64,000 bases of DNA from Candidatus Woesearchaeota archaeon CG10_big_fil_rev_8_21_14_0_10_45_16 (GTDB taxonomy: Archaea; Nanobdellota; Nanobdellia; Woesearchaeales; GW2011-AR9): assembly GCA_002762785.1 (NCBI GenBank), contig PCXY01000003.1:70463-134462 (forward strand). Reading direction: 5' to 3'. The notes beneath the pieces were generated by a model. It was given only the letters and a program-made list of their open reading frames with translations, did not search any database and was not told the DNA's origin. Below are positions 319 to 8,446 of this stretch, in pieces (positions within the stretch are counted from its first letter, which is position 1; each line of letters begins with the position of its first letter). Position numbers and translations under genes: made by a program.

Positions 319-383
319 TGATTGAGCATAACGATGTTATGCTTCCTTAGGTTTATCCTCAGGTCGAGGCGTAGCCGAGAAGT
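319..383 (+). repeat. composite repeat copy E1 (palindrome CATAACGATGTTATG at 326-340, then hairpin, then a CGTAG motif); candidate attC-like site
   Basis: Exact 15-bp palindrome shared with five other copies. The downstream 7-bp hairpin is degenerate (CCTTAGG tttat CCTCAGG). It is followed by cgtagccgagaag and a T-run. Confidence 0.6.
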
Positions 384-555
384 TTTCAAGTTACCGTGCA
401 TAGTGCGTTGCTGTCAGAAGTCTTTAACACATTTAGTTCAGGCAAAAACAATTAGTGGTTTCATAGTAGTTAGGGGGCTCTCTCGTTTTATCAAAATTAT
501 TAGCAAATTATTTAAATTAGTTCGGTTTTTAGTATGTAAGAGGTATTCAAAGAAA

Positions 556-756
556 ATGGAAACTGACATATTAACCAAGATTCATGAAGATTTAGAGATA
601 TTAAAGCATGATATGGCTGAGATTAAAGAAGTTATCAAACTAGAACCTGAACTACGTGAAGAAGTGATTGAACAAGTTAAAGAAGCCAGAGAACGTATTG
701 TTAAGGGACAATTTGTTAGCAATGAAGATATTCTTAAAGAGTTTGATGTAGAATGA
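556..756 (+). CDS. putative antitoxin, partner of the RelE-like toxin
   Basis: Small acidic ORF whose stop overlaps the toxin start (ATGA). The ORF-track start at 322 would translate through repeat E1, so the internal Met at 556 is the more plausible start. Confidence 0.5.
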   Translation: METDILTKIHEDLEILKHDMAEIKEVIKLEPELREEVIEQVKEARERIVKGQFVSNEDILKEFDVE

Positions 757-1037
757 GCTATGAAGTTATTTGGGATGACAAAGCCCGAAATTTCTTAAGG
801 AAAATTCACAAAGATGATGCTAAAAGAATTGTAAAGAAAGTAAATAGCATTGTTGATGATCCAAGGCATTATCTTGAAACATTAGTTGAGATTAAATCCT
901 ACAAATTAAGAATAGGAGATTTTAGAGCATTAATTGATTTGGATGAAAATAAGCAAACTATTTCTGTCGTGCTGGTTGGACATAGAAAAGATGTTTACAA
1001 ATATGTTCAGAGAAGTGGTTTTAGAAGAAAGAATTGA
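753..1037 (+). CDS. relE: RelE/ParE-family toxin
   Basis: Contains KLRIGDFRALIDLDENKQTISVVLVGHRKDVY, typical of RelE/StbE toxins. Small and translationally coupled to an upstream small ORF. Confidence 0.7.
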   Translation: MSYEVIWDDKARNFLRKIHKDDAKRIVKKVNSIVDDPRHYLETLVEIKSYKLRIGDFRALIDLDENKQTISVVLVGHRKDVYKYVQRSGFRRKN

Positions 1038-1053: not shown

Positions 1054-1416
1054 TTAAAGACTTTGGCGTTGTGTCAATCCTCTTCCTAAATGGTTATAAA
1101 AATTGTGTGAAGCAGATTTTTCTTCTGTTGGATCTGCAACAAGTTCAATACCAAGAGGATTAAAGACTTTTTCTTTCATCTCCCCATCAATTCTTTTGGA
1201 TGAACCAATTGGAACTATCTGATATACTTGTGCAATAACATAAGCTCCAACAACTCCGTCTGTTCCAAAAAGATTGTTGCCATTTTCATCATTATCAGAT
1301 TCATGATATGCTCTGTGGATTGTTTGTAATGTAGCCAATCTTGTTGGATCTTTTCTAATATCATCTAAACAAAATTCAGCTGCTTCTCTTGGTTTTAATT
1401 GTCTAATTTCTGGCAT
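1054..1416 (-). CDS. hypothetical protein
   Basis: 120-aa ORF convergent with the TA pair. No recognisable motif. Confidence 0.4.
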   Translation of the reverse strand: MPEIRQLKPREAAEFCLDDIRKDPTRLATLQTIHRAYHESDNDENGNNLFGTDGVVGAYVIAQVYQIVPIGSSKRIDGEMKEKVFNPLGIELVADPTEEKSASHNFYNHLGRGLTQRQSL

Positions 1417-1620
1417 TTTTTATCCTCCCTATCACCAATTGTGTGAAGATAAGAGCTACTTTAAAAATATTTGTGTTTAAAATGAGAGAGAGCCCCCATT
1501 TCAGTATTTTACATTTACTTTGTTTTTGCCGTTATAGAGTTTTACATTGTTAAAGACAGCAACGCATTAGTTTAGAGAATTTCCTACAGGATTGTTCTCG
1601 TCTAGGTAACTTGAAAATTA

Positions 1621-1676
1621 AGCATAACGATGTTATGTTTCAGGGGGTTTATCCCCCTGCAAGCGTAGCGTAGAGT
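1621..1676 (+). repeat. composite repeat copy E2 (palindrome at 1623-1637; hairpin CAGGGGGtttatCCCCCTG at 1641-1659)
   Basis: Same architecture and orientation as E1 and E3-E6, followed by caagcgtagcgtagag and a T-run. Confidence 0.65.
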
Positions 1677-1775
1677 TTTTAGATTTGAGAACAAAGATTA
1701 ATCACGAACAGAGTGAGACAAGACTTTAGGAAAAAAGCCCTAAGTTATTTAAAGTAGTTAGAGAAATGATATGTT

Positions 1776-2486
1776 ATGGTTGATAAATTATTGGCGAGAG
1801 CAACAAGTCCCACACAGTATGATTTAGATGATATCTCATGGAGTACTGAAAATGGTCTCCAATCTCCTACAAGAAAATTCTTTTTTGATTATTTATTAGG
1901 ATTTAAGGAGGAGTGGAGAGATTCTGATATTTTAGATATTGGTTGTGGGACAGGTTGGTTAATGCATTTGTTAAAGGAGAATGGAGCAAAATCTGTTGAG
2001 GGAATAGAACCATCTCATAAAAATGTTGCATATGCAGGTGATAATGGATTTGAAATTTATCATTGCGATTTAGATTCTTTTTCAGAAGATAAGAGATATG
2101 ATTTATTAATTTCCGTTATGACTTTTGGACACATAAATAATATTGATTCTTCTTTTGAGAAGATGGCAAGATTAGTTAGAGATGGGGGTGGTGTCCAGTT
2201 AATTGTTCCTGCATATGATTATTTTAAAAGAGAAAGAGATGGTTGTAAGGTTGAATTTGAAGAATTAAATCCAGAGGAATATGTTGTTCAAGTAACTCGT
2301 GAGCAAGGAACAATTGCTGAAATTGTGAGAAAAGTGGAGTTTTATGAACGTGCCGCTGAACGAGTTGGTTTAACAGTTGAAGATTCTATTCCGATGGTTC
2401 CAACAGATTCATTGATGAGAGATTCTCCGAGACATGCAACATTTAAAGGTCAGCCAATAACATATCTAGTGAGACTGCGAAAATAG
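1776..2486 (+). CDS. class I SAM-dependent methyltransferase
   Basis: Motif I LDIGCGTGWL and the overall Rossmann methyltransferase pattern. Confidence 0.7.
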   Translation: MVDKLLARATSPTQYDLDDISWSTENGLQSPTRKFFFDYLLGFKEEWRDSDILDIGCGTGWLMHLLKENGAKSVEGIEPSHKNVAYAGDNGFEIYHCDLDSFSEDKRYDLLISVMTFGHINNIDSSFEKMARLVRDGGGVQLIVPAYDYFKRERDGCKVEFEELNPEEYVVQVTREQGTIAEIVRKVEFYERAAERVGLTVEDSIPMVPTDSLMRDSPRHATFKGQPITYLVRLRK

Positions 2487-2519
2487 GGCTTTTTTCTACT
2501 TTCTCAAATCTAAAAATTA

Positions 2520-2583
2520 AACATAACGATGTTATGCTTCGGGAGGTTCACCCTCCCGCAAGGAAACGGAGTTTGAGCGAGTG
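2520..2583 (+). repeat. composite repeat copy E3 (palindrome at 2522-2536; hairpin CGGGAGGttcacCCTCCCG at 2541-2559)
   Basis: Same 15-bp palindrome. The hairpin stem differs from E2/E5/E6 but stays fully complementary, which is a compensatory change. Confidence 0.65.
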
Positions 2584-2690
2584 TTGAAAACCAGCCGTTA
2601 GGCTGTAAATGGTTTTTCTCGCTCATTCCCGGTTTCCGCAGAGTCTGACCTTGAAATTTTGGACATATTGGCTTTTCCTTGAAATAATTC

Positions 2691-2782
2691 CCACCACTGA
2701 CGCTGGTGAGCCGGGGGATGCCCCCTCCGGGGTGGCGAACGAGGACTCACGAAGGGAGTCCGACAGCCGTCAGTAGTGGTGG
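2691..2782 (+). other. GC-rich structured element (candidate small ncRNA) in an ORF-less interval between repeats E3 and E4
   Basis: The outer inverted repeat CCACCACTGACG / CGTCAGTAGTGGTGG encloses two internal hairpins, GGGGGatgCCCCC and GGACTCacgaagggGAGTCC. The surroundings are AT-rich and no ORF of 60 aa or more is present. Confidence 0.35.
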
Positions 2783-2830
2783 ACGCATAATTATTTGATG
2801 GAAAATAACCAAAATTTAATGGTCATATTA

Positions 2831-2888
2831 AGCATAACGATGTTATGTCCCCCAGACTTTACGTCTGGGTGCGAACGTAGTGAGCAAG
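2831..2888 (+). repeat. composite repeat copy E4 (palindrome at 2833-2847; hairpin CCCAGACtttacGTCTGGG at 2851-2869; cgaacgtagtgagcaag)
   Basis: Same palindrome. Third independent stem sequence, same 7-bp-stem plus 5-nt TT-loop geometry. Confidence 0.65.
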
Positions 2889-2958
2889 TATTTTCCAACC
2901 GTGCAGAGAACTAGCGCCATATTTCCTAATCACTTGTAGTTAAAGGGGACAATTTTTT

Positions 2959-3963
2959 TTAGTGCTTGACTATTTCTAATTTTGCTTTTTTATTTTTGGC
3001 AAGAAGTTTGGCAGTTCCACCAATAGGAAATGTAATCATTGGATTAGTATGGCCAAAATCAACATTAGCAATAACAGGTAAGTGGTTTAATTCTTTTTTT
3101 GTTTTGATTATTTTTGTAAGTAATTCTTTAGTCATCTTTGTGGCTTTTTGAAATCTTCCTATTACTATTCCCTGCACTTTTTTAAATTCTGGTTGATGGA
3201 TGATTGATTGGATATCTCTGTCAATAGTGGCGACATGTGCTTCATAATCGTCTTCTAAGAAAAGAATACTACCCTTGATATTTGGTATGTATTCAGTTCC
3301 ATGAAGTAATTGAAGAGTGCATAAATTCCCTCCAATTATTTTTCCAGAAGCTTCGCCCTCATTAATTATCCAGAAACCATCGTTTTTCATAAATTCACGA
3401 TTTTCCTGATCATTTGCCCAGAGATCATCACTCCATTCTTTAGAAGGCAAGACTTCAAATGATTCATCAGAAAATAAGCATTTTTTGAAATAGTCTAATG
3501 AATAGTCAAATCCTCTCTTTTCCCCAAATGAGAAAAAGTGCAGACCAGAATATGTTACTAACCCTGTTTTTGCATAGATTGCATTTGCAAGAGCAGTAAT
3601 ATCTGAATAGCCACAAAGTATTTTAGGATTATTTTTGATTAAGTCATAATCTAAATATCGTAAAAGTTGATTAGAATTAAACCCGCCAATTACCGTTATG
3701 ATTAATTTTATTGATTTATCTTTAAACGCTTCATGGAGGTCATCTACTCGTTTTTTAATTGTTGAGGAATTGAATTCATCTATTTCGTTTACGTGTTCCG
3801 AAAAACTGACTTTAAGTCCTAATTCTTCTAAGCGTTTAATGGCTATTTTTTGTAATTCTTCATTAAGCCAGGGCATAGCCAAACTTCTTGCTGGTGTTAT
3901 TATACGAACGCCATCGCCAGATTTTAACTTTGCTGGAATCATACTTGTTAATGAACGTAGCAA
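2959..3963 (-). CDS. LD-carboxypeptidase (peptidase S66, LdcA/MccF-like)
   Basis: CGYSDITAL matches the GYSD serine motif of S66 peptidases, and the length of about 330 aa fits. Confidence 0.75.
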   Translation of the reverse strand: MLRSLTSMIPAKLKSGDGVRIITPARSLAMPWLNEELQKIAIKRLEELGLKVSFSEHVNEIDEFNSSTIKKRVDDLHEAFKDKSIKLIITVIGGFNSNQLLRYLDYDLIKNNPKILCGYSDITALANAIYAKTGLVTYSGLHFFSFGEKRGFDYSLDYFKKCLFSDESFEVLPSKEWSDDLWANDQENREFMKNDGFWIINEGEASGKIIGGNLCTLQLLHGTEYIPNIKGSILFLEDDYEAHVATIDRDIQSIIHQPEFKKVQGIVIGRFQKATKMTKELLTKIIKTKKELNHLPVIANVDFGHTNPMITFPIGGTAKLLAKNKKAKLEIVKH

Positions 3964-4097
3964 ATATATAAAATGTGCGGTAAAAATAGAGATTTAGAAA
4001 TTGTCCCCTACATTTGGTTTTACATTGTGATTAAGGCGCTAGTTTAGATTGTTAAAGTTAGCGTAAGCGTAGAATTGTTCTAGGTTGGAAAATATTG

Positions 4098-4158
4098 GAC
4101 ATAACGATGTTATGTTTCAGGGGGTTTATCCCCCTGCAAGACACGTAGTGTCGCAGAG
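4098..4158 (+). repeat. composite repeat copy E5 (palindrome at 4100-4114; hairpin at 4118-4136; acacgtagtgtcgcagag)
   Basis: Identical 19-nt hairpin to E2 and E6. The 3' mini-hairpin is GACACgtaGTGTC. An orphan GTAGTG-CATAAC half-site lies at 4187-4201. Confidence 0.65.
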
Positions 4159-4201
4159 GTTTTTGTTGTTGTATCAACCAGTTTAACGCTGTAGTGCATA
4201 A

Positions 4202-5077
4202 CTAATAATCTACGTGAACATGACCGTTTGATGCTATAATGTAACCAGCATATCTAATGAGAACTGCTTTAATATCTACATTTAATTCATGGAAGAGGTA
4301 ACTTCCGATTGTATTTTCATGGCTGAAATAAATGTTGATTGTTTTTTCTGATAAAGCACTCATTAGATTTCTTATTTCATTAGAAGTAGCTTCAGATAAG
4401 GGAGATTCTGTAATCCATTTTCTGAAATGTTCACGTAAAATTCTCAACTTTCTCCTATTTAGTGGGCTCCCATCTTCTAGTGTTTCTTTTAGTTCTGGAT
4501 ACCTCTCTTTCATATCTTTAATTTTTGAACCGCTTCCAGATAATGAACTGTTTTGTCTTGGTCGTGTTAAACGAGCATTAGAGTTTCTTGATAAATAAGA
4601 ATAAGAAAGATCAGCAAACAATCTTGTTCTTTTGCTGTCTGAATTATAGAAATTTACAGTTACATTATCATAAGCTTCCAAAAATTGTTTGAGAAATTTA
4701 TTAAATCTCCAAACTTGAATCATTCCTCTCATAGTTAAATTTTTTCCAGGAAGTTTCCGATAAGATGCCATTAATGGCTCAGGATGACGAACTAAAATAT
4801 TTACACCAGAAGAATTAAAAATTTTAATTTCATTTGTTAATTTTTGATAAGTTTCTTTCGTTGTTGATTCTTGACAATTTTTGATTATATTCAACAATGA
4901 GTTTTTCTGCTCCGATGAGAGATGTTTCTCAAATTTTTTGTAATAACCTAAAAGAAACTTCTCTAAACTTTTCATTCCAGCTTCAATAATTTTGATATCT
5001 TTCTCTTTATGAGAATTATTTAAGAGTTTTCTTCCTGAAGATTTCGTCAACGCAAGGAATGAACTAATATTCATCAT
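4202..5077 (-). CDS. hypothetical protein (weak sulfotransferase-like features)
   Basis: 291-aa ORF. The VRHPEP..SY stretch is faintly sulfotransferase-like and is not relied on. Confidence 0.35.
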   Translation of the reverse strand: MMNISSFLALTKSSGRKLLNNSHKEKDIKIIEAGMKSLEKFLLGYYKKFEKHLSSEQKNSLLNIIKNCQESTTKETYQKLTNEIKIFNSSGVNILVRHPEPLMASYRKLPGKNLTMRGMIQVWRFNKFLKQFLEAYDNVTVNFYNSDSKRTRLFADLSYSYLSRNSNARLTRPRQNSSLSGSGSKIKDMKERYPELKETLEDGSPLNRRKLRILREHFRKWITESPLSEATSNEIRNLMSALSEKTINIYFSHENTIGSYLFHELNVDIKAVLIRYAGYIIASNGHVHVDY

Positions 5078-5112
5078 AAGCTTTAAATAGATCTTATTTT
5101 CTTATAAAACTT

Positions 5113-5673
5113 ATGTTAATTGTTATAGCTGGATTAATTGGAGCAGGAAAATCAACAATTGCTAGAGAACTTTCTAAAAAACTTTCTAAAAAACTTTCTA
5201 AAAAACTTTCTATTCCATTATATAGTATAGATGATGACAAAAAGAGAGTTTACAAGACTCACCCTCAATATGAACATTTCTTGAAGAATCACATCCCATT
5301 TCCGGATGAGACTAGAAAAAAAACTTTTGATGCTTCATTGAAGGGTCTTAGAAAGTTAGCAGAAGAGCATAAACATGCAATTGTTGAAGAAACATTTCAT
5401 AAAAAAATTTTAAGAGATCCATTTTTTGAAGAGGCTAAGAAAATTTTCGGGGGAATGATTTTGATTCTTGCAAAAGTAGATGATAAATTAGTGAAAGAGA
5501 GGTTAGATAAGAGAGAGAAAGATGAAGACCATATGGTTGGATATGGGATGTATCTATCATTTAAGAAACAGTGGGAGCCATTTGAGAAAGTTGATTATGA
5601 ATTTGTTAATGAAGGAAATTTTGATGAAAATATGAATCAGTTGGTGAATTTCCTGAGAGATAAGTTAGATTAG
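5113..5673 (+). CDS. P-loop NTPase, putative nucleotide/nucleoside kinase (AAA_33-like)
   Basis: Walker A GLIGAGKST at the N-terminus. Contains a [12 protein letters not shown] repeat encoded by a 12-bp tandem repeat at 5176-5215. Confidence 0.55.
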   Translation: MLIVIAGLIGAGKSTIARELSKKLSKKLSKKLSIPLYSIDDDKKRVYKTHPQYEHFLKNHIPFPDETRKKTFDASLKGLRKLAEEHKHAIVEETFHKKILRDPFFEEAKKIFGGMILILAKVDDKLVKERLDKREKDEDHMVGYGMYLSFKKQWEPFEKVDYEFVNEGNFDENMNQLVNFLRDKLD

Positions 5674-5750
5674 TTATTTCTTTATGCACGGAAGCGTTAG
5701 GTTTGGGATTTAGCGTTAGCGTAGAATCCATTTACAACAACAAAAACTTA

Positions 5751-5809
5751 AACATAACGATGTTATGCCTCAGGGGGTTTATCCCCCTGCAAGCACGTAG
5801 TGCGCAGAG
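5751..5809 (+). repeat. composite repeat copy E6 (palindrome at 5753-5767; hairpin at 5771-5789; caagcacgtagtgcgcagag)
   Basis: Same architecture. The 3' mini-hairpin is GCACgtaGTGC. Confidence 0.65.
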
Positions 5810-5955
5810 TTGGATTCTCACGTTTTTAGAGGGGGGCGTCAGTTATGACATTAGTTAGTTTTTAGAAAGGGGTCGCCAAATAAAATTTTTGTTACTTGTA
5901 AGTAAATTACAGAAACATTTAAATATTTGCATAGATTTCTTTTATAATACAATGA

Positions 5956-7041
5956 TTGGCAAAGAACGTCAGGAAAGGGATTATATTCCTAATTGGTCAA
6001 GATTATTCTAGCTATAGCTTTAAAGATTTAAGATATGCATCTTCTAATGAAAATTTACAGGACATCTATAATAGAGTTGAAGGCATAAAAGGAAATGGCT
6101 TGTTTGTAATTGGTGGATTTGATCAAGTTGCTTCTTTGTTAGGACATTCCGAACTAGATTTAGCACATTTAGTTGATAACAATCTTACTGCTGTTGAATA
6201 TGCTAGATTCCGCTTAGCACTGACACAAATTTGTGATACTAGATTTGAATATGTTGGTCGACTGATATCACGGAGAGTAAAAGGAATTTTTAATAATATC
6301 TCTTCTTTGAGAAATTTTTATTCTTCTAGAGAGACAGCAAGTGTTAGATTGTTCAACTTTTATAGAACACTATATGATGAACGCCTTACAAGGCTAAGAA
6401 AATTACTTGATTTAAGTCTGTGTTCTGATACAATAGAAGAAAAAATGCTTTATTTTGGGCAATTTAGGATGGAATTTGAAAAAGAAGCAGGGAATATAAG
6501 GGGTATAGAATGGAGAAGAGAATCTCTGGAAGAAGATTTCTGTAGATATGAACAATTTTTAGAAGAAAGAGAAATCGCTTATGATTCTCTGTTTGCTGAA
6601 GAAACAGCTAAATTGCTTTGTGAAAATTTTGGAATTAGTAAAAATCTACTAGAAGAAACAATCTTGAGCGAATATTTTGAAAGTAAATTGAACTGGGGTG
6701 AAAATGATATGGTCGCTGGAAGGAGATTTTGGAGTTTTATTGAATCTAATAAGGACCATTGGCTTTCATCAGACGCCTATTTCGAGAGAGTAAAATCAAT
6801 GTACAGAGAAGAAAGAATTAAATTTTCTCAGCTAGACTTGACCAATGAAGATATCTCGCTTAATCTTTTTGGAGATTTGTCTTTAGTTTATTTATCTAAT
6901 ATTCATGAATGGGTAAAAGTTGAATTAGGAGAACTAATTAAATGTTTATGTTTAAATGAGTTAGGTGTTAATGAACACACAATTTTTCTTTACACAACAA
7001 CAAAAGGAAAGGGTAAATGTAAAATGGCGACCCCGTTATAG
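5956..7041 (+). CDS. hypothetical protein
   Basis: 361-aa ORF. A TATA-like element (cttttataata) sits about 10 bp upstream of the ATG, consistent with an archaeal leaderless transcript. Confidence 0.45.
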   Translation: MAKNVRKGIIFLIGQDYSSYSFKDLRYASSNENLQDIYNRVEGIKGNGLFVIGGFDQVASLLGHSELDLAHLVDNNLTAVEYARFRLALTQICDTRFEYVGRLISRRVKGIFNNISSLRNFYSSRETASVRLFNFYRTLYDERLTRLRKLLDLSLCSDTIEEKMLYFGQFRMEFEKEAGNIRGIEWRRESLEEDFCRYEQFLEEREIAYDSLFAEETAKLLCENFGISKNLLEETILSEYFESKLNWGENDMVAGRRFWSFIESNKDHWLSSDAYFERVKSMYREERIKFSQLDLTNEDISLNLFGDLSLVYLSNIHEWVKVELGELIKCLCLNELGVNEHTIFLYTTTKGKGKCKMATPL

Positions 7042-7123
7042 TTTTAGTTTTTATCTTCTCATAGAGAAGCGTTTTATACATAGCCCCACTCGTTTTTTTT
7101 AGTTTACGTGAGAATCCAATTAG

Positions 7124-7217
7124 GCATAACTCTTTATATGCTGAAATGGGCTGTAATGGGGGAATTTTGGGGATACAAGGGCTGTCCTGAAGCCCATAAA
7201 ACAATAAAGAGTTATGT
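7124..7217 (+). repeat. attC-like long imperfect hairpin E7 (gCATAAC-TCTTTAT ... ATAAAGA-GTTATGt)
   Basis: The 13-bp terminal inverted repeat CATAACTCTTTAT / ATAAAGAGTTATG starts with R''-like GCATAAC and ends with R'-like GTTATGT. An inner stem ATGGGCT/AGCCCAT is separated from it by unpaired bases, as in folded attC sites. Confidence 0.55.
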
Positions 7218-7417
7218 GCCACTATAACCATCATAGTAAGAAATGACTTAGAATGACCTAGAATGTCCTGAAAAAATCTAAATTCACTTTCTAAATTCAC
7301 CTAAAAAAACTTAACCACTTAACATCTTAACAACTTAAACTGACCTGAAATAACATCGATGGACGTATCAGCTTCAACATGGCTGATCTATGATCCCTCT
7401 GCACTGGTCAGCTTCTA
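7218..7417 (+). promoter_or_regulatory. attI-like / promoter region upstream of the recombinase gene, rich in short direct repeats
   Basis: TTAAC repeats with 8-bp period (four copies, 7311-7340). CTAAATTCAC occurs twice (7278-7300). TAGAATG occurs twice (7248-7266). The region sits between the last attC-like site and the recombinase start. Confidence 0.35.
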
Positions 7418-8446
7418 TTGTCCAGTGTGAGAGCGCTTCTACCTGCGAAATTTGGCAGGTTCAGCGGTTGGAGGATGAGCACTGGACACACTGGTCAGGT
7501 CCGGGTAAGATATATAAATCATAAAAGTCATGATAATGACATGGATATTAACATGGATGTTGCTGGCCTTATCACAAAAGAGGGATGGCGTCTGGGAAGA
7601 AGCCCCAGGACTATCAAGACCTACATCTACGTTGTAGAGAAATTCTTAAGGACGTATCATAAAGAGCCGCATCAGGTTACCAAACGGGACATTGAGAACC
7701 ATCTTCTTCGGCTGCAAGAAAGGAACAGCTCAGGCAATACGATGAATGTCCATCTCAACGCTCTTAAGTTCTTTTATGAAAGGGTCCTTAAGAAAAAGCT
7801 GACGGTCAATATCGAGTTTGCTAAAGTGCGGAAGAGTTTGCCCACGGTCTTGAGCAAAGAAGAGACTTCTGCCTTGTTTTCTGCCATCTCTAACCCTAAA
7901 CAGCAGTTGATGGTCAAGCTGCTCTATGCCAGCGGGATGCGGGTCAGTGAACTTGCTTCCTTGCGTGTGCGTGATCTTGAATTCAACAATAACTATGGAT
8001 GGGTCAGGAACGGCAAAGGTGGTAAGGATAGATTATTCATTATCGCCAAAAAGTTGAAGAACGAGATCCTGGCCAGGATATCTCAAAACAAACTGCATTC
8101 TGCTGACTGGCTATTTCCTGGGTATAACAGCAACCACATCAGCCCCAGTTCCATCCGCACTATCATCAAGACCGCTTCCCTGAAAGCTGGTATCAGCAAA
8201 AATGTTCATCCCCACACTTTGCGCCACTCTTTCGCCACCCATCTGATCGAAAATGGCTACGCGGTGACGGAAGTGCAGCCTCTCCTTGGCCATGGTTCGA
8301 TCAACACGACCATGATCTATCTTCATATCGCATCACCACAATTGTTAAAAGTAGAAAGTCCTCTTGATTCGTTAGGGACAGCAGCGAGAGAAGTAAGAAT
8401 AGTAAAGACGGTGGGGGTACGATCTGATCCTCTGGATGCTGCCTGA
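7418..8446 (+). CDS. tyrosine site-specific recombinase, integron-integrase-like (XerC/XerD/IntI family)
   Basis: Conserved blocks match IntI closely: LLYASGMRVSELASLRVRDL, GKGGKDR, HPHTLRHSFATHL, LLGHGSINTTMIYLHI and a C-terminal SPLDSL. The true start may be Met42 or Met46, at 7541 or 7553. Confidence 0.8.
   Translation: MSSVRALLPAKFGRFSGWRMSTGHTGQVRVRYINHKSHDNDMDINMDVAGLITKEGWRLGRSPRTIKTYIYVVEKFLRTYHKEPHQVTKRDIENHLLRLQERNSSGNTMNVHLNALKFFYERVLKKKLTVNIEFAKVRKSLPTVLSKEETSALFSAISNPKQQLMVKLLYASGMRVSELASLRVRDLEFNNNYGWVRNGKGGKDRLFIIAKKLKNEILARISQNKLHSADWLFPGYNSNHISPSSIRTIIKTASLKAGISKNVHPHTLRHSFATHLIENGYAVTEVQPLLGHGSINTTMIYLHIASPQLLKVESPLDSLGTAAREVRIVKTVGVRSDPLDAA

Follow-up and report, generated by a model that had tools for sequence, protein, structure and literature searches.

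The recombinase gene at this locus raises the question of whether a tyrosine recombinase built like the Xer enzymes that unlink chromosomes, rather than like a true integron integrase (IntI), might nevertheless serve an array of gene cassettes. The window analysed, the whole 64,000-nucleotide (64-kb) stretch from Candidatus Woesearchaeota archaeon CG10_big_fil_rev_8_21_14_0_10_45_16, contains an ORF at 7418..8446 (+). A first-pass annotation had described its product as an IntI-like recombinase that appears to lack the IntI-specific additional domain, and had proposed that a Xer-length enzyme paired with very compact attC-like sites would be a distinct integron-like solution.

The recombinase and its gene

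The ORF is real and carries Phage_int_SAM_4 and Phage_integrase domains (PF00589, E = 7e-41), but its first 41 codons are an artefact, as the annotation had suspected. All 27 homologues start at MDV/MNV, aligned with M42/M46 of the ORF, and the 301-aa product from ATG 7541 is an exact gene call in public data. In addition, a conserved TATA box lies downstream of the TTG at 7418. The features of this part of the locus are as follows.

7541..8446 (+): recombinase gene, true CDS of 301 aa (alternative start ATG 7553), encoding a XerA-family, IntI-like tyrosine recombinase without the IntI additional domain
7418..7540 (+): spurious 41-codon N-terminal extension of the mechanical ORF, upstream of the promoter and not part of the protein
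7511..7518 (+): TATA-box-like TATATAAA about 27 nt before ATG 7541, conserved in relatives and implying a leaderless or short-leader mRNA; its reading as a promoter is an inference
7480..7498 (+): direct repeat CACTGGAC-A-CACTGGTC just upstream of the TATA box, conserved in all aligned relatives, possibly an operator or accessory binding site, a function that was not tested

The catalytic residues R134, K159, H225, R228, H251 and Y260 are invariant in 28 sequences of the clade, a large DPANN clade (Woesearchaeota/Nanoarchaeota). It had been stated beforehand that a proper profile alignment recovering the additional domain would overturn the first reading, and the alignments showed the opposite. 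HMMER alignment against VchIntIA (2a3v) splits into two stretches, in which query residues 224 to 239 (15 aa) span IntI4 residues 184 to 240 (56 aa), so that about 41 aa are missing, and the IntI model TIGR02249 also matches in two stretches. Measured directly, the spacer from GKGGKDR to H-x-L-R-H is 60 aa, not the roughly 52 aa first estimated, and it is also 60 aa in P. abyssi XerA, as counted by hand from the alignment. Across 107 relatives the length is bimodal, with 57-67 aa (and one at 74) or 100-105 aa in 22 true IntIs, for example 101 in Vibrio atypicus, indicating that the earlier value of roughly 90 for IntI is an underestimate. A structure prediction had likewise been named as a way to look for a helix like alpha-I2; the AF2 model (pLDDT 82) shows only a short beta-hairpin at residues 183-201, where IntI carries its insert. 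The observation of a recombinase with IntI-like boxes but no IntI domain is therefore confirmed.

By curated profile the protein is an archaeal XerA-family member that just passes the cutoff, not an IntI. NF040815 (XerA_Arch) scores 235.5 against a cutoff of 220, in one stretch covering model positions 11-259 of 263, whereas TIGR02249 scores 216.2 against 265 and PRK15417 (IntI1) 138.3 against 435. Relatives score 224-233 on the XerA model and studied XerAs 296-316, while a true IntI scores 468 on the IntI model. Compared with the studied XerAs, the XerA score of the protein is 60-80 bits lower and its IntI score 40-50 bits higher, and its second-best family is IntI, not XerD. It also shares the C-terminal SPxD tail of IntI: the 2a3v alignment runs to the tail (VESPLD against VLSPLS), and S273, P274, D276 and L278 are invariant in 28 relatives. 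Foldseek places VchIntIA and XerA on top with near-equal scores. A crude NJ tree on 195 columns groups the clade with IntI-like proteins rather than with classical XerAs, but its bootstraps of 23-47 leave XerA against IntI affinity unresolved.

Recombination-type sites and cargo upstream of the gene

About 400 bp upstream of the gene lies a 28-bp dif-like site, P. Beyond it are at least 11 directly repeated compact sites (E), six of them in the window, each with a dif-like core (ATTnnnnnTAAC-GAT-GTTAWG) and a hairpin kept by compensatory changes. They separate low-GC cargo genes. In order of distance from the gene, the sites are:

7204..7220 (-): inverted partial copy of P (left arm plus centre), ATAAAGAGTTATGTGCC being the reverse complement of GGCACATAACTCTTTAT; it lies 65 nt from P and is specific to this window
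7119..7146 (+): gene-proximal primary site P, dif/attI-like, ATTAGGCATAA-CTCTTT-ATATGCTGAAA (11-6-11)
5747..5812 (+): site E6, core CTTAAACATAAC-GAT-GTTATGC, GC hairpin h2 (CAGGGGG TTTAT CCCCCTG) and small hairpin h3 (GCAC GTA GTGC)
4094..4160 (+): site E5, core ATTGGACATAAC-GAT-GTTATGT with h2 and h3; its left arm matches the P. abyssi dif left arm at 10 of 11 positions
2827..2890 (+): site E4, whose h2 (CCCAGAC TTTAC GTCTGGG) is a compensated variant
2516..2582 (+): site E3, with h2 CGGGAGG TTCAC CCTCCCG
1617..1680 (+): site E2
321..386 (+): site E1; the array continues at least 5.2 kb beyond the left end of the window, with five more sites

The cargo comprises:

5956..7041 (+): 361-aa protein with DUF7790, in the cassette next to P
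4202..5673: cassette with two genes, a 291-aa unknown protein (4202-5077, minus strand) and a P-loop kinase-like AAA_18/AAA_33 protein (5113-5673, plus strand)
2959..3963 (-): LD-carboxypeptidase (Peptidase_S66)
2690..2790 (+): structured element of about 90 nt in an ORF-less cassette (2529-2839), also found in arrays of two other genomes
1776..2486 (+): SAM-dependent methyltransferase; a 93%-identical second copy of this cassette lies further out in the same array
1054..1416 (-): 120-aa protein with no family match, sharing a cassette with the following pair
556..1037 (+): toxin-antitoxin pair, in which a DUF2683-like 66-aa protein (556-756) overlaps a ParE-family toxin (753-1037)

P is the only match to the P pattern in the window and resembles P. 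abyssi dif (PMC2958812), with 8 of 11 left-arm positions identical; its binding by the enzyme was not assayed. It is conserved in 11 of 12 aligned relatives, where it is found 108-489 nt upstream of the recombinase gene. Its spacing is TAAC-N6-TAWG in all 16 P sites tabulated, against N5 in the E sites. The left arms of the E sites match the P. abyssi dif left arm at 10-11 of 11 positions. CATAACGATGTTATG occurs six times exactly, and TAAYGATGTTA occurs six times against 0.02 expected. A PWM search gave 32 hits in 25 loci, and a regular expression added 5 more sites in one locus (L293; loci are designated L with a number). All 37 sites lie on the strand of the recombinase and upstream of it, and none was found in the 55 kb downstream in the window. 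The same layout recurs in all 14 relatives with enough flanking sequence. No tRNA or Rfam identity was found for the repeats.

In hairpin h2, 6 of 6 stem pairs show changes on both sides and 94% of cells are paired, whereas slid controls for the whole structure give 33-48% and 0 of 500 shuffles reach the observed value. However, the arms of the core palindrome do not covary, and the outer arm positions are unpaired in 10-11 of 27 sites. The E sites are thus dif-like double-strand cores with an added hairpin and not miniature attC hairpins. Single-strand folding of five of the six window sites had suggested an enclosing outer stem, but matched flanks pair no better than mismatched flanks (mean longest complement 6.37 against 6.18) and a second copy of one cassette lacks the partner, so this stem was rejected.

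Cassettes shared between genomes

Comparison of close relatives revealed loss of synteny exactly at P. L093 and L097 are 87% identical over 2377 nt starting right after P, with nothing shared to the left, and L100 against L149 behaves the same way. An RHH/PIN cassette is 90% identical over 878 nt between L090 and the array of this organism, although in L090 it lacks a canonical core on one side. The cassette end to the left of E2 is 92.7% identical over 110 nt to the cassette end that abuts the P site of another genome, and the homology stops at ...CATAAC (1628); it is joined to an E centre here and to a P centre there, in two independent assemblies. The recombinase genes of those genomes are only 61-63% identical at the nucleotide level. 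An apparent cassette 99% identical in two genomes, on contig L296, was discounted, because independent contigs L297 and L298 differ from it to the left of a 39-nt stretch shared with the window organism, suggesting that L296 is probably a k-mer chimera; only the 110-nt homology was kept.

Duplicated cassettes are bounded by the cores, and the arrays share only the site elements. The array has 32-36% GC, against 41-49% in the rest of the window apart from its last 2 kb. Contigs from other samples end inside sites, and metagenome assemblies repeatedly break there. No excised circles, whose junction would join the left arm of a cassette to its own right arm (for example window ...GAAAATTAAGCATAAC | GATGTTATGCTTCCTTAGG), and no empty sites were seen. 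A scan of genome contigs, which was not exhaustive, returned mostly distant bacterial IntI/Xer relatives at no more than 42% identity; these showed no P-like site, and no E-type arrays were seen in the six examined. In viral contigs, a 14-mer gave only chance hits without the hairpin and a 29-nt core-plus-hairpin pattern gave none.

A proposed cassette platform

Based on these results, we propose with fairly good confidence that the locus is a Xer-type, integron-like gene-cassette platform of a DPANN archaeon (Woesearchaeota/Nanoarchaeota-like). The first interpretation is supported in both halves, the Xer-length enzyme and its pairing with compact sites in an integron-like array, subject to the corrections given above on family, nature of the sites and spacer length. 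In this view, the E site has a dif-type left arm (ATTnnnnnTAA), a central region one base shorter than in P (C-GATG, against C-TCTTT in the P of this window), a weak right arm (TTAWGY), and a GC-rich hairpin selected for structure, usually followed by a second small hairpin. The anatomy of P and E, the strict position and orientation of the sites, the recurrence of the layout in 14 related genomes, the loss of synteny at P, the cassette ends falling inside the cores and the greater similarity of cassettes than of recombinase genes between genomes come directly from the data. The mechanism, in contrast, is inferred. The recombinase would catalyse cassette excision by E x E recombination, where the centres are identical, and insertion by E x P recombination, with the crossover at the shared left-arm/centre boundary (...TAA(C)|). 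Because the centres of E and P differ in sequence and length, E x P probably exchanges only one strand pair and is completed by replication, which would resemble integron attC x attI and CTX-phage/dif1 recombination. Nothing here is experimental and all of the DNA comes from metagenome assemblies; catalysis by this enzyme is inferred from adjacency and the dif-like arms, and a recombinase encoded elsewhere in the genome is not excluded, although no other tyrosine recombinase lies in the window. A 5-bp central region would be unusual for a Xer site, and the hairpins, whose role is unknown, could act in RNA, for example as terminators. The enzyme is more likely the host's own XerA, with P its dif, than a dedicated paralogue, but the 64 kb studied does not decide between them.

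The alternative of a dedicated cassette integrase, a functional analogue of IntI and paralogue of XerA with P as an attI and the housekeeping XerA and true dif elsewhere, is possible but less likely. The marginal XerA score, the IntI as second-best family, the IntI-type tail, the weakly supported tree, the variation of the P centre between close relatives, and the presence of two such genes in one distant DPANN relative (L010) favour it. However, the gene sits in conserved synteny with core DNA-repair genes (NreA or Hef) in several relatives, P has a canonical 11-6-11 dif architecture, and xerA/dif modules are known in some archaea (PMC2958812, PMC5357621). The synteny is only suggestive, and the 64 kb available does not show whether the enzyme is the sole housekeeping Xer that resolves dimers. 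It is unlikely that an ordinary xerA/dif module merely adjoins a variable island whose repeats are terminators, small RNAs or MITE-like repeats and whose cassettes are shuffled by homologous recombination. The repeats, at 60-75 nt, are similar enough to support homologous exchange, h2 is selected as a single-strand structure, and a T-rich run follows h3, as a terminator would show. Against this, the sites carry dif-type arms and occur only upstream of the recombinase and in one orientation in every locus. Moreover, junctions with P share only the roughly 12-nt left arm, yet the breakpoints fall exactly there, and the arms do not covary, as expected for arms that come from different cassettes.

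A canonical integron with a divergent IntI and unusually short attC sites is refuted as to membership and is very unlikely, although the layout, the IntI-like boxes and tail, and the CATAAC...GTTATG of the core, which resembles R''/R' (RYYYAAC/GTTRRRY), recall one. The additional domain is absent, both IntI profiles score below their cutoffs, and cassettes lie in both orientations with their own promoter-like sequences. The R''-like and R'-like boxes are 3 nt apart, each misses its consensus at one position, and there is no L''/L' pair and no extrahelical base; the attC model of IntegronFinder was not applied. Archaeal IntIs described so far keep the domain (PMC9668308). A single integrated provirus or plasmid, with the recombinase as its integrase and the repeats as att-site remnants, is also very unlikely. 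The low-GC block next to a tyrosine recombinase and its toxin-antitoxin and Fic-type cargo would fit, but the recombinase and its downstream neighbours are conserved across the clade while the content of the block differs in every genome. In addition, there are at least 11 sites rather than two, no replication, capsid or conjugation genes are present, and no match was found in viral contigs.

About as likely as not, this is a functional and previously undescribed cassette-capture platform of DPANN archaea, run by a Xer-length recombinase intermediate between XerA and IntI, with composite sites that combine a double-strand Xer core and a structure-selected hairpin. It could be an independent invention of the integron principle, or could reflect the state from which integrons arose, before IntI gained its additional domain and single-stranded attC recognition. 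Integrons are defined by the extra domain of IntI and folded attC sites. If a Xer-type enzyme runs a cassette array, such platforms are not tied to that innovation, and the origin of integrons from Xer-like ancestors becomes directly testable with a clade that shares the tail of IntI but not its insert. The layout gives reduced-genome DPANN archaea a plausible route to a flexible accessory gene pool of toxin-antitoxin pairs, Fic proteins, methyltransferases and a cell-wall peptidase, and it would explain why cassettes are far more similar between lineages than the core genes are. Searches of the IntegronFinder type need the IntI C-terminal signature and the attC model, so we infer, without having run that program, that they should miss these arrays.

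Comparison with known systems

Literature searches on XerA or Xer with cassette arrays, IMEX in archaea, and DPANN integron-like systems found no description of such a platform. The protein type as such is not new, given the 'integron-like' and 'Cand' subgroups of simple tyrosine recombinases (Smyshlyaev et al. 2021, PMC8138268), where, in the parts consulted, no function, sites or cassette arrays were assigned to the insert-less members. In archaeal XerA/dif chromosome-dimer resolution (Cortez et al. 2010, PMC2958812; structures 4A8E, 5HXY), the recombinase has the same length and the same 60-aa spacer, and xerA next to dif is known in Sulfolobus. The present protein differs in its profile scores and IntI-type tail, and no array of extra sites with cargo is described for XerA in the papers found.

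Integrons, including the archaeal integrons of Ghaly et al. 2022 (PMC9668308), likewise have a tyrosine recombinase next to a primary site and an array of directly repeated sites that separate unrelated cargo genes. As here, the sites are conserved while the cargo turns over, part of each site is conserved in structure rather than in sequence, and toxin-antitoxin cargo is present. However, the present sites are two-arm cores of about 25 bp plus a flanking hairpin rather than R''-L''...L'-R' hairpins, and, although the recombinase is transcribed away from the array, the cargo is not read from a common promoter.

The integrative elements exploiting Xer (IMEX; CTX-phi, TLC-phi, VGJ-phi, GGI; reviewed in PMC5357621) have no recombinase of their own and are inserted at a dif-type site, leaving directly repeated dif-like sites. 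Their site and dif have non-identical central regions, which suggests single strand-pair exchange, and serial insertion builds arrays. The present cassettes also encode no recombinase and are flanked by dif-like sites, but that P is the dif of the chromosome and that a Xer enzyme moves the cassettes are inferences, so their assignment to this group stays undecided. Here the units are one- or two-gene cassettes rather than phages or islands, at least 11 lie in a row, all share one stereotyped site with a structured module, and the host is an archaeon with a single-recombinase Xer system. In the Acinetobacter dif modules (pdif sites; e.g. PMC6449649, PMC11705084), small modules carrying accessory genes, often toxin-antitoxin genes, are also bounded by Xer-type sites and shuffled between replicons. 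The pdif sites alternate in orientation (XerC-XerD/XerD-XerC) and lie on plasmids of bacteria with XerC/D, whereas all sites described here are direct repeats, chromosomal, next to the recombinase gene, and carry an extra hairpin.

Overall architecture of the recombinase

The ORF at 7418..8446 (+) is real and carries an N-terminal SAM-like domain and the Phage_integrase catalytic domain. The first-pass annotation had described it as an IntI-like recombinase lacking the IntI-specific additional domain, and this observation holds, as the IntI insert is absent. A profile alignment showing the insert had been named beforehand as the result that would overturn this view, and the alignments show the opposite. 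HMMER aligned the protein with VchIntIA (PDB 2a3v) only in two stretches, with query residues 224-239 bridging IntI residues 184-240, so that about 41 residues are missing. For the same reason, the TIGR02249 profile matches in two stretches. The spacer between GKGGKDR and HTLRH was measured as 60 aa, equal to that of P. abyssi XerA counted by hand from the alignment. In 107 relatives the spacer length is bimodal, being either 57-67 aa (with one at 74) or 100-105 aa in 22 true IntIs, such as that of Vibrio atypicus at 101. The lengths first estimated, about 52 aa for this protein and roughly 90 aa for IntI, are both about 10 too low, but the contrast between them is right. A structure prediction had likewise been called for to look for an alpha-I2-like helix, and the AlphaFold2 model built on 28 homologues (pLDDT 82) shows only a short beta-hairpin at residues 183-201, where IntI carries helix alpha-I2.

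The N-terminal extension, suspected in the first-pass annotation to be a mis-called start, is an artefact. The homologues start at MDV..., aligned with M42/M46 of the ORF, and the 301-aa product from ATG 7541 is an exact public gene call. In addition, a conserved TATATAAA lies about 27 nt before that ATG.

Family assignment

The protein was compared with NCBIfam models. It passes the XerA equivalog model and fails the IntI model. It is a marginal XerA that leans towards IntI.

Table. NCBIfam scores in bits. The window protein was scored in a separate search from the other three. Order of values: XerA_Arch NF040815 (cutoff 220); IntI TIGR02249 (cutoff 265); XerD.
Window protein: 235.5; 216; 184
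P. abyssi XerA: 316; 166; 225
T. acidophilum XerA: 296; 175; 197
True IntI: 186; 468; 159

The protein carries the C-terminal V-x-S-P-[LY]-D-x-L tail of IntI, which is invariant in the clade and is aligned by the IntI1 model up to position 331 of 337 in relatives. Foldseek ranked VchIntIA (4e-17) and XerA 5hxy (3e-16) together, whereas an NJ tree did not resolve whether the clade sits with IntI-like proteins or with classical XerAs. Homologues number in the thousands, and the nearest ones, at 55-71% identity and mostly 260-300 aa, are Nanoarchaeota or Woesearchaeota where named. The window also encodes the archaeal markers NreA, Spt5-NGN, EF-1alpha and S10.

Repeated sites upstream of the recombinase gene

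The 7.4 kb upstream of the gene has a GC content of 32-36%, compared with 41-49% in the rest of the window apart from its last 2 kb. This region holds six direct copies of one element, termed here the E site, and the core TAAYGATGTTA occurs six times against 0.02 expected. Each element reads ATTnn-nnnTAAC-GAT-GTTAWGY, followed by a 7-bp GC-rich hairpin with a TTYAY loop (h2), and then usually by a small hairpin around a CGTAG/GTA motif (h3) and a T-rich run. The left arm is an archaeal dif arm. The dif of P. abyssi is ATTGGATATAA-TCGGCC-TTATATCTAAA (PMC2958812), the site at window position 4094 reads ATTGGACATAA, and one site in a relative is identical at 11 of 11 positions. The inner arm halves (GCATAA...TTATGTT) also match E. 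coli dif, a comparison that was not tested here.

About 420 nt before the start codon lies a different, symmetric site, termed P. It aligns in 11 of 12 relatives and is the only match to its pattern in the 64 kb. In all 16 tabulated P sites six bases separate TAAC from TAWG, whereas in E sites the spacing is always five. Site P and further sequence features of the region are as follows.

7119-7146: site P, ATTAGGCATAA-CTCTTT-ATATGCTGAAA.
7204-7220: inverted partial copy of P (left arm plus centre, GGCA(C)ATAACTCTTTAT; compare 7125-7139), 65 nt from the site itself. Relatives keep only a YCATAA motif at that place. It may be a remnant of an inverted site or an accessory half-site.
7480-7498: direct repeat CACTGGnC-CACTGGTC immediately upstream of the TATA box of the recombinase gene, conserved across the clade at the aligned positions in 11 relatives. 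It may be an operator or accessory binding site. The window has an extra 250 nt (7222-7470) with a further copy.
4036-4093, 5694-5746 and 1541-1616: left flanks of E sites. Several cassette ends, for example here and at 3710-3746 and 1520-1571 of loci L090 and L293, respectively, carry semi-conserved modules of 20-120 nt just before the left arm (TTAGCGTWAGCGT..., GCGTTAGCGTCATCAAAATAGG...). The modules recur between genomes and echo the CGTAG motif of h3; no role was assigned to them.
2690-2790: conserved structured element of about 90 nt (CTGACGCnGGTGAG-CGGGGGnTGCCCCC-CGGGGTG-CGAACGAGGA...GTCAG) in an ORF-less cassette (2529-2839), present in arrays of three genomes (also at 5790-5880 of locus L084 and at about 175-270 of locus L105). 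Its consensus fold has 25 pairs, five of them with compensatory changes, although only three sequences are available. Rfam gave no match at E<=1.
5154-5213: tandem 12-nt repeat (AAAACTTTCTAA, about four copies) in the P-loop kinase cargo gene, encoding a KKLS repeat near its N-terminus.

The secondary structure of the sites was examined on 27 copies. All six pairs of the h2 stem show changes on both sides, for example GC:14 and CG:11 at one pair, and 94% of h2 cells are paired. Slid controls for the whole structure give 33-48% paired, and none of 500 shuffles reaches the observed covariation. Therefore, h2 is selected as a single-strand structure, in DNA or RNA. However, the outer positions of the core palindrome are unpaired in 10-11 of the 27 sites, which fits two protein-binding arms contributed by different cassettes rather than a hairpin. 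An apparent outer stem around each site was rejected, as it did not survive a control comparing matched with mismatched flanks.

Recurrence in related genomes

A 25-nt PWM built from 26 sites was scanned over 25 loci of close relatives and gave 32 hits, and a regex scan of locus L293 added five more sites. All 37 lie upstream of the recombinase gene and on its strand, and none was found downstream or on the other strand, including in the other 55 kb of the window. Every relative examined with at least 0.5 kb of upstream flank has at least one such site, although the copies in loci L086 and L170 are degenerate. In the present organism the array extends at least 5.2 kb beyond the window, with five more sites.

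Between genomes the arrays share only the site elements and not the cargo. The cargo here includes a ParE toxin pair, a methyltransferase, an LD-carboxypeptidase, a P-loop kinase, a DUF7790 protein, unknown proteins and the ORF-less cassette, whereas cargo elsewhere includes Fic, PIN/RHH, HNH, glyoxalase and flavodoxin. Downstream of the recombinase lie conserved repair genes, NreA or Hef. A further recombinase-linked repeat was seen in a bacterium. In the Oceanirhabdus sp. W0125-5 chromosome (locus L007, 1-10300), an insert-less IntI-like recombinase (39% identity) has four direct copies of a repeat of about 400-600 nt in the 8 kb upstream of its gene, which may be another kind of recombinase-linked array.

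Cassette boundaries and evidence that cassettes move

Two pairs of closely related genomes are 85-90% identical from P onwards and share nothing to its left. The identity between loci L093 and L097 starts right after the right arm of P, and that between L100 and L149 starts at P. An RHH/PIN cassette is 90% identical over 878 nt between L090 and the array of the present organism, and the homology ends in an E core. In addition, the last 110 nt of the cassette with the ParE pair and a 120-aa protein are 92.7% identical to the cassette end that abuts P in another genome, and the homology stops exactly at ...CATAAC, as seen in two independent assemblies. The recombinase genes of those genomes are only 61-63% identical at the nucleotide level. 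Duplicated cassettes begin in one core and end after the next left arm, with one pair in L084 being 99% identical and the methyltransferase cassette pair here 93% identical. Therefore, a unit consists of centre, right arm, h2/h3, body and left arm.

All the sequences are metagenomic, and the assemblies themselves break at the sites. Contigs from other samples start inside h2 of the E site at 5747, 18 nt before P, inside the centre of P or at its left arm. Independent assemblies (contigs L082, L083, L088, L098, L297 and L298) repeatedly end inside or within about 100 nt of the E and P sites, and many contigs of relatives start 100-700 nt upstream of the recombinase gene, which is consistent with population heterogeneity at the array. 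One contig, L296 (Logan SRR6240789_318302), appeared to place a 99%-identical cassette next to the P site of another species. However, at nt 801-840 it switches from the sequence of the window organism to that of the organism encoding homologue P0055 across an identical stretch of 39 nt. It is probably an assembly chimera and was not relied upon, and it is a caution for using short k-mer contigs as evidence of cassette transfer. No excised circles or empty sites were observed.

Proposed mechanism

The anatomy of the sites, their linkage to the recombinase and the positions of the breakpoints come directly from the data, whereas the steps proposed below, including catalysis by this enzyme, are inferred. 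We propose that the adjacent recombinase binds the dif-type arms, that E x E recombination, with identical centres, excises or reshuffles cassettes, and that E x P recombination inserts them next to the gene. The E and P sites share the left arm and the first centre base, but differ in the rest of the centre and in its length. Therefore, we expect an exchange of one strand pair at the left-arm boundary with completion by replication, which is how integron attC x attI and CTX-phage/dif1 recombination work. This step is the least certain. The hairpins may mark cassette sites as accessory elements or may act as terminators, and the present data did not separate the two; likewise, a housekeeping and a dedicated function of the enzyme were not told apart. 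The reading proposed in the first-pass annotation, a Xer-length enzyme paired with compact sites as a distinct integron-like solution, is supported, although the sites do not have the attC architecture.

Comparison with known systems

The protein is a member of the XerA family by profile and has a dif-like site. Insert-less 'integron-like' recombinases have been noted as a sequence class (PMC8138268), but no paper linking them, or XerA, to cassette arrays was found in the literature searched, whose coverage was incomplete, so that a prior description may have been missed. Archaeal integrons described so far have canonical IntIs with the domain and canonical attCs (PMC9668308). The present system works like an integron but falls outside IntI on the insert, the profile cutoff and the attC architecture. 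The array resembles serial IMEX insertion and, more loosely, the Acinetobacter dif modules, whose sites alternate in orientation.
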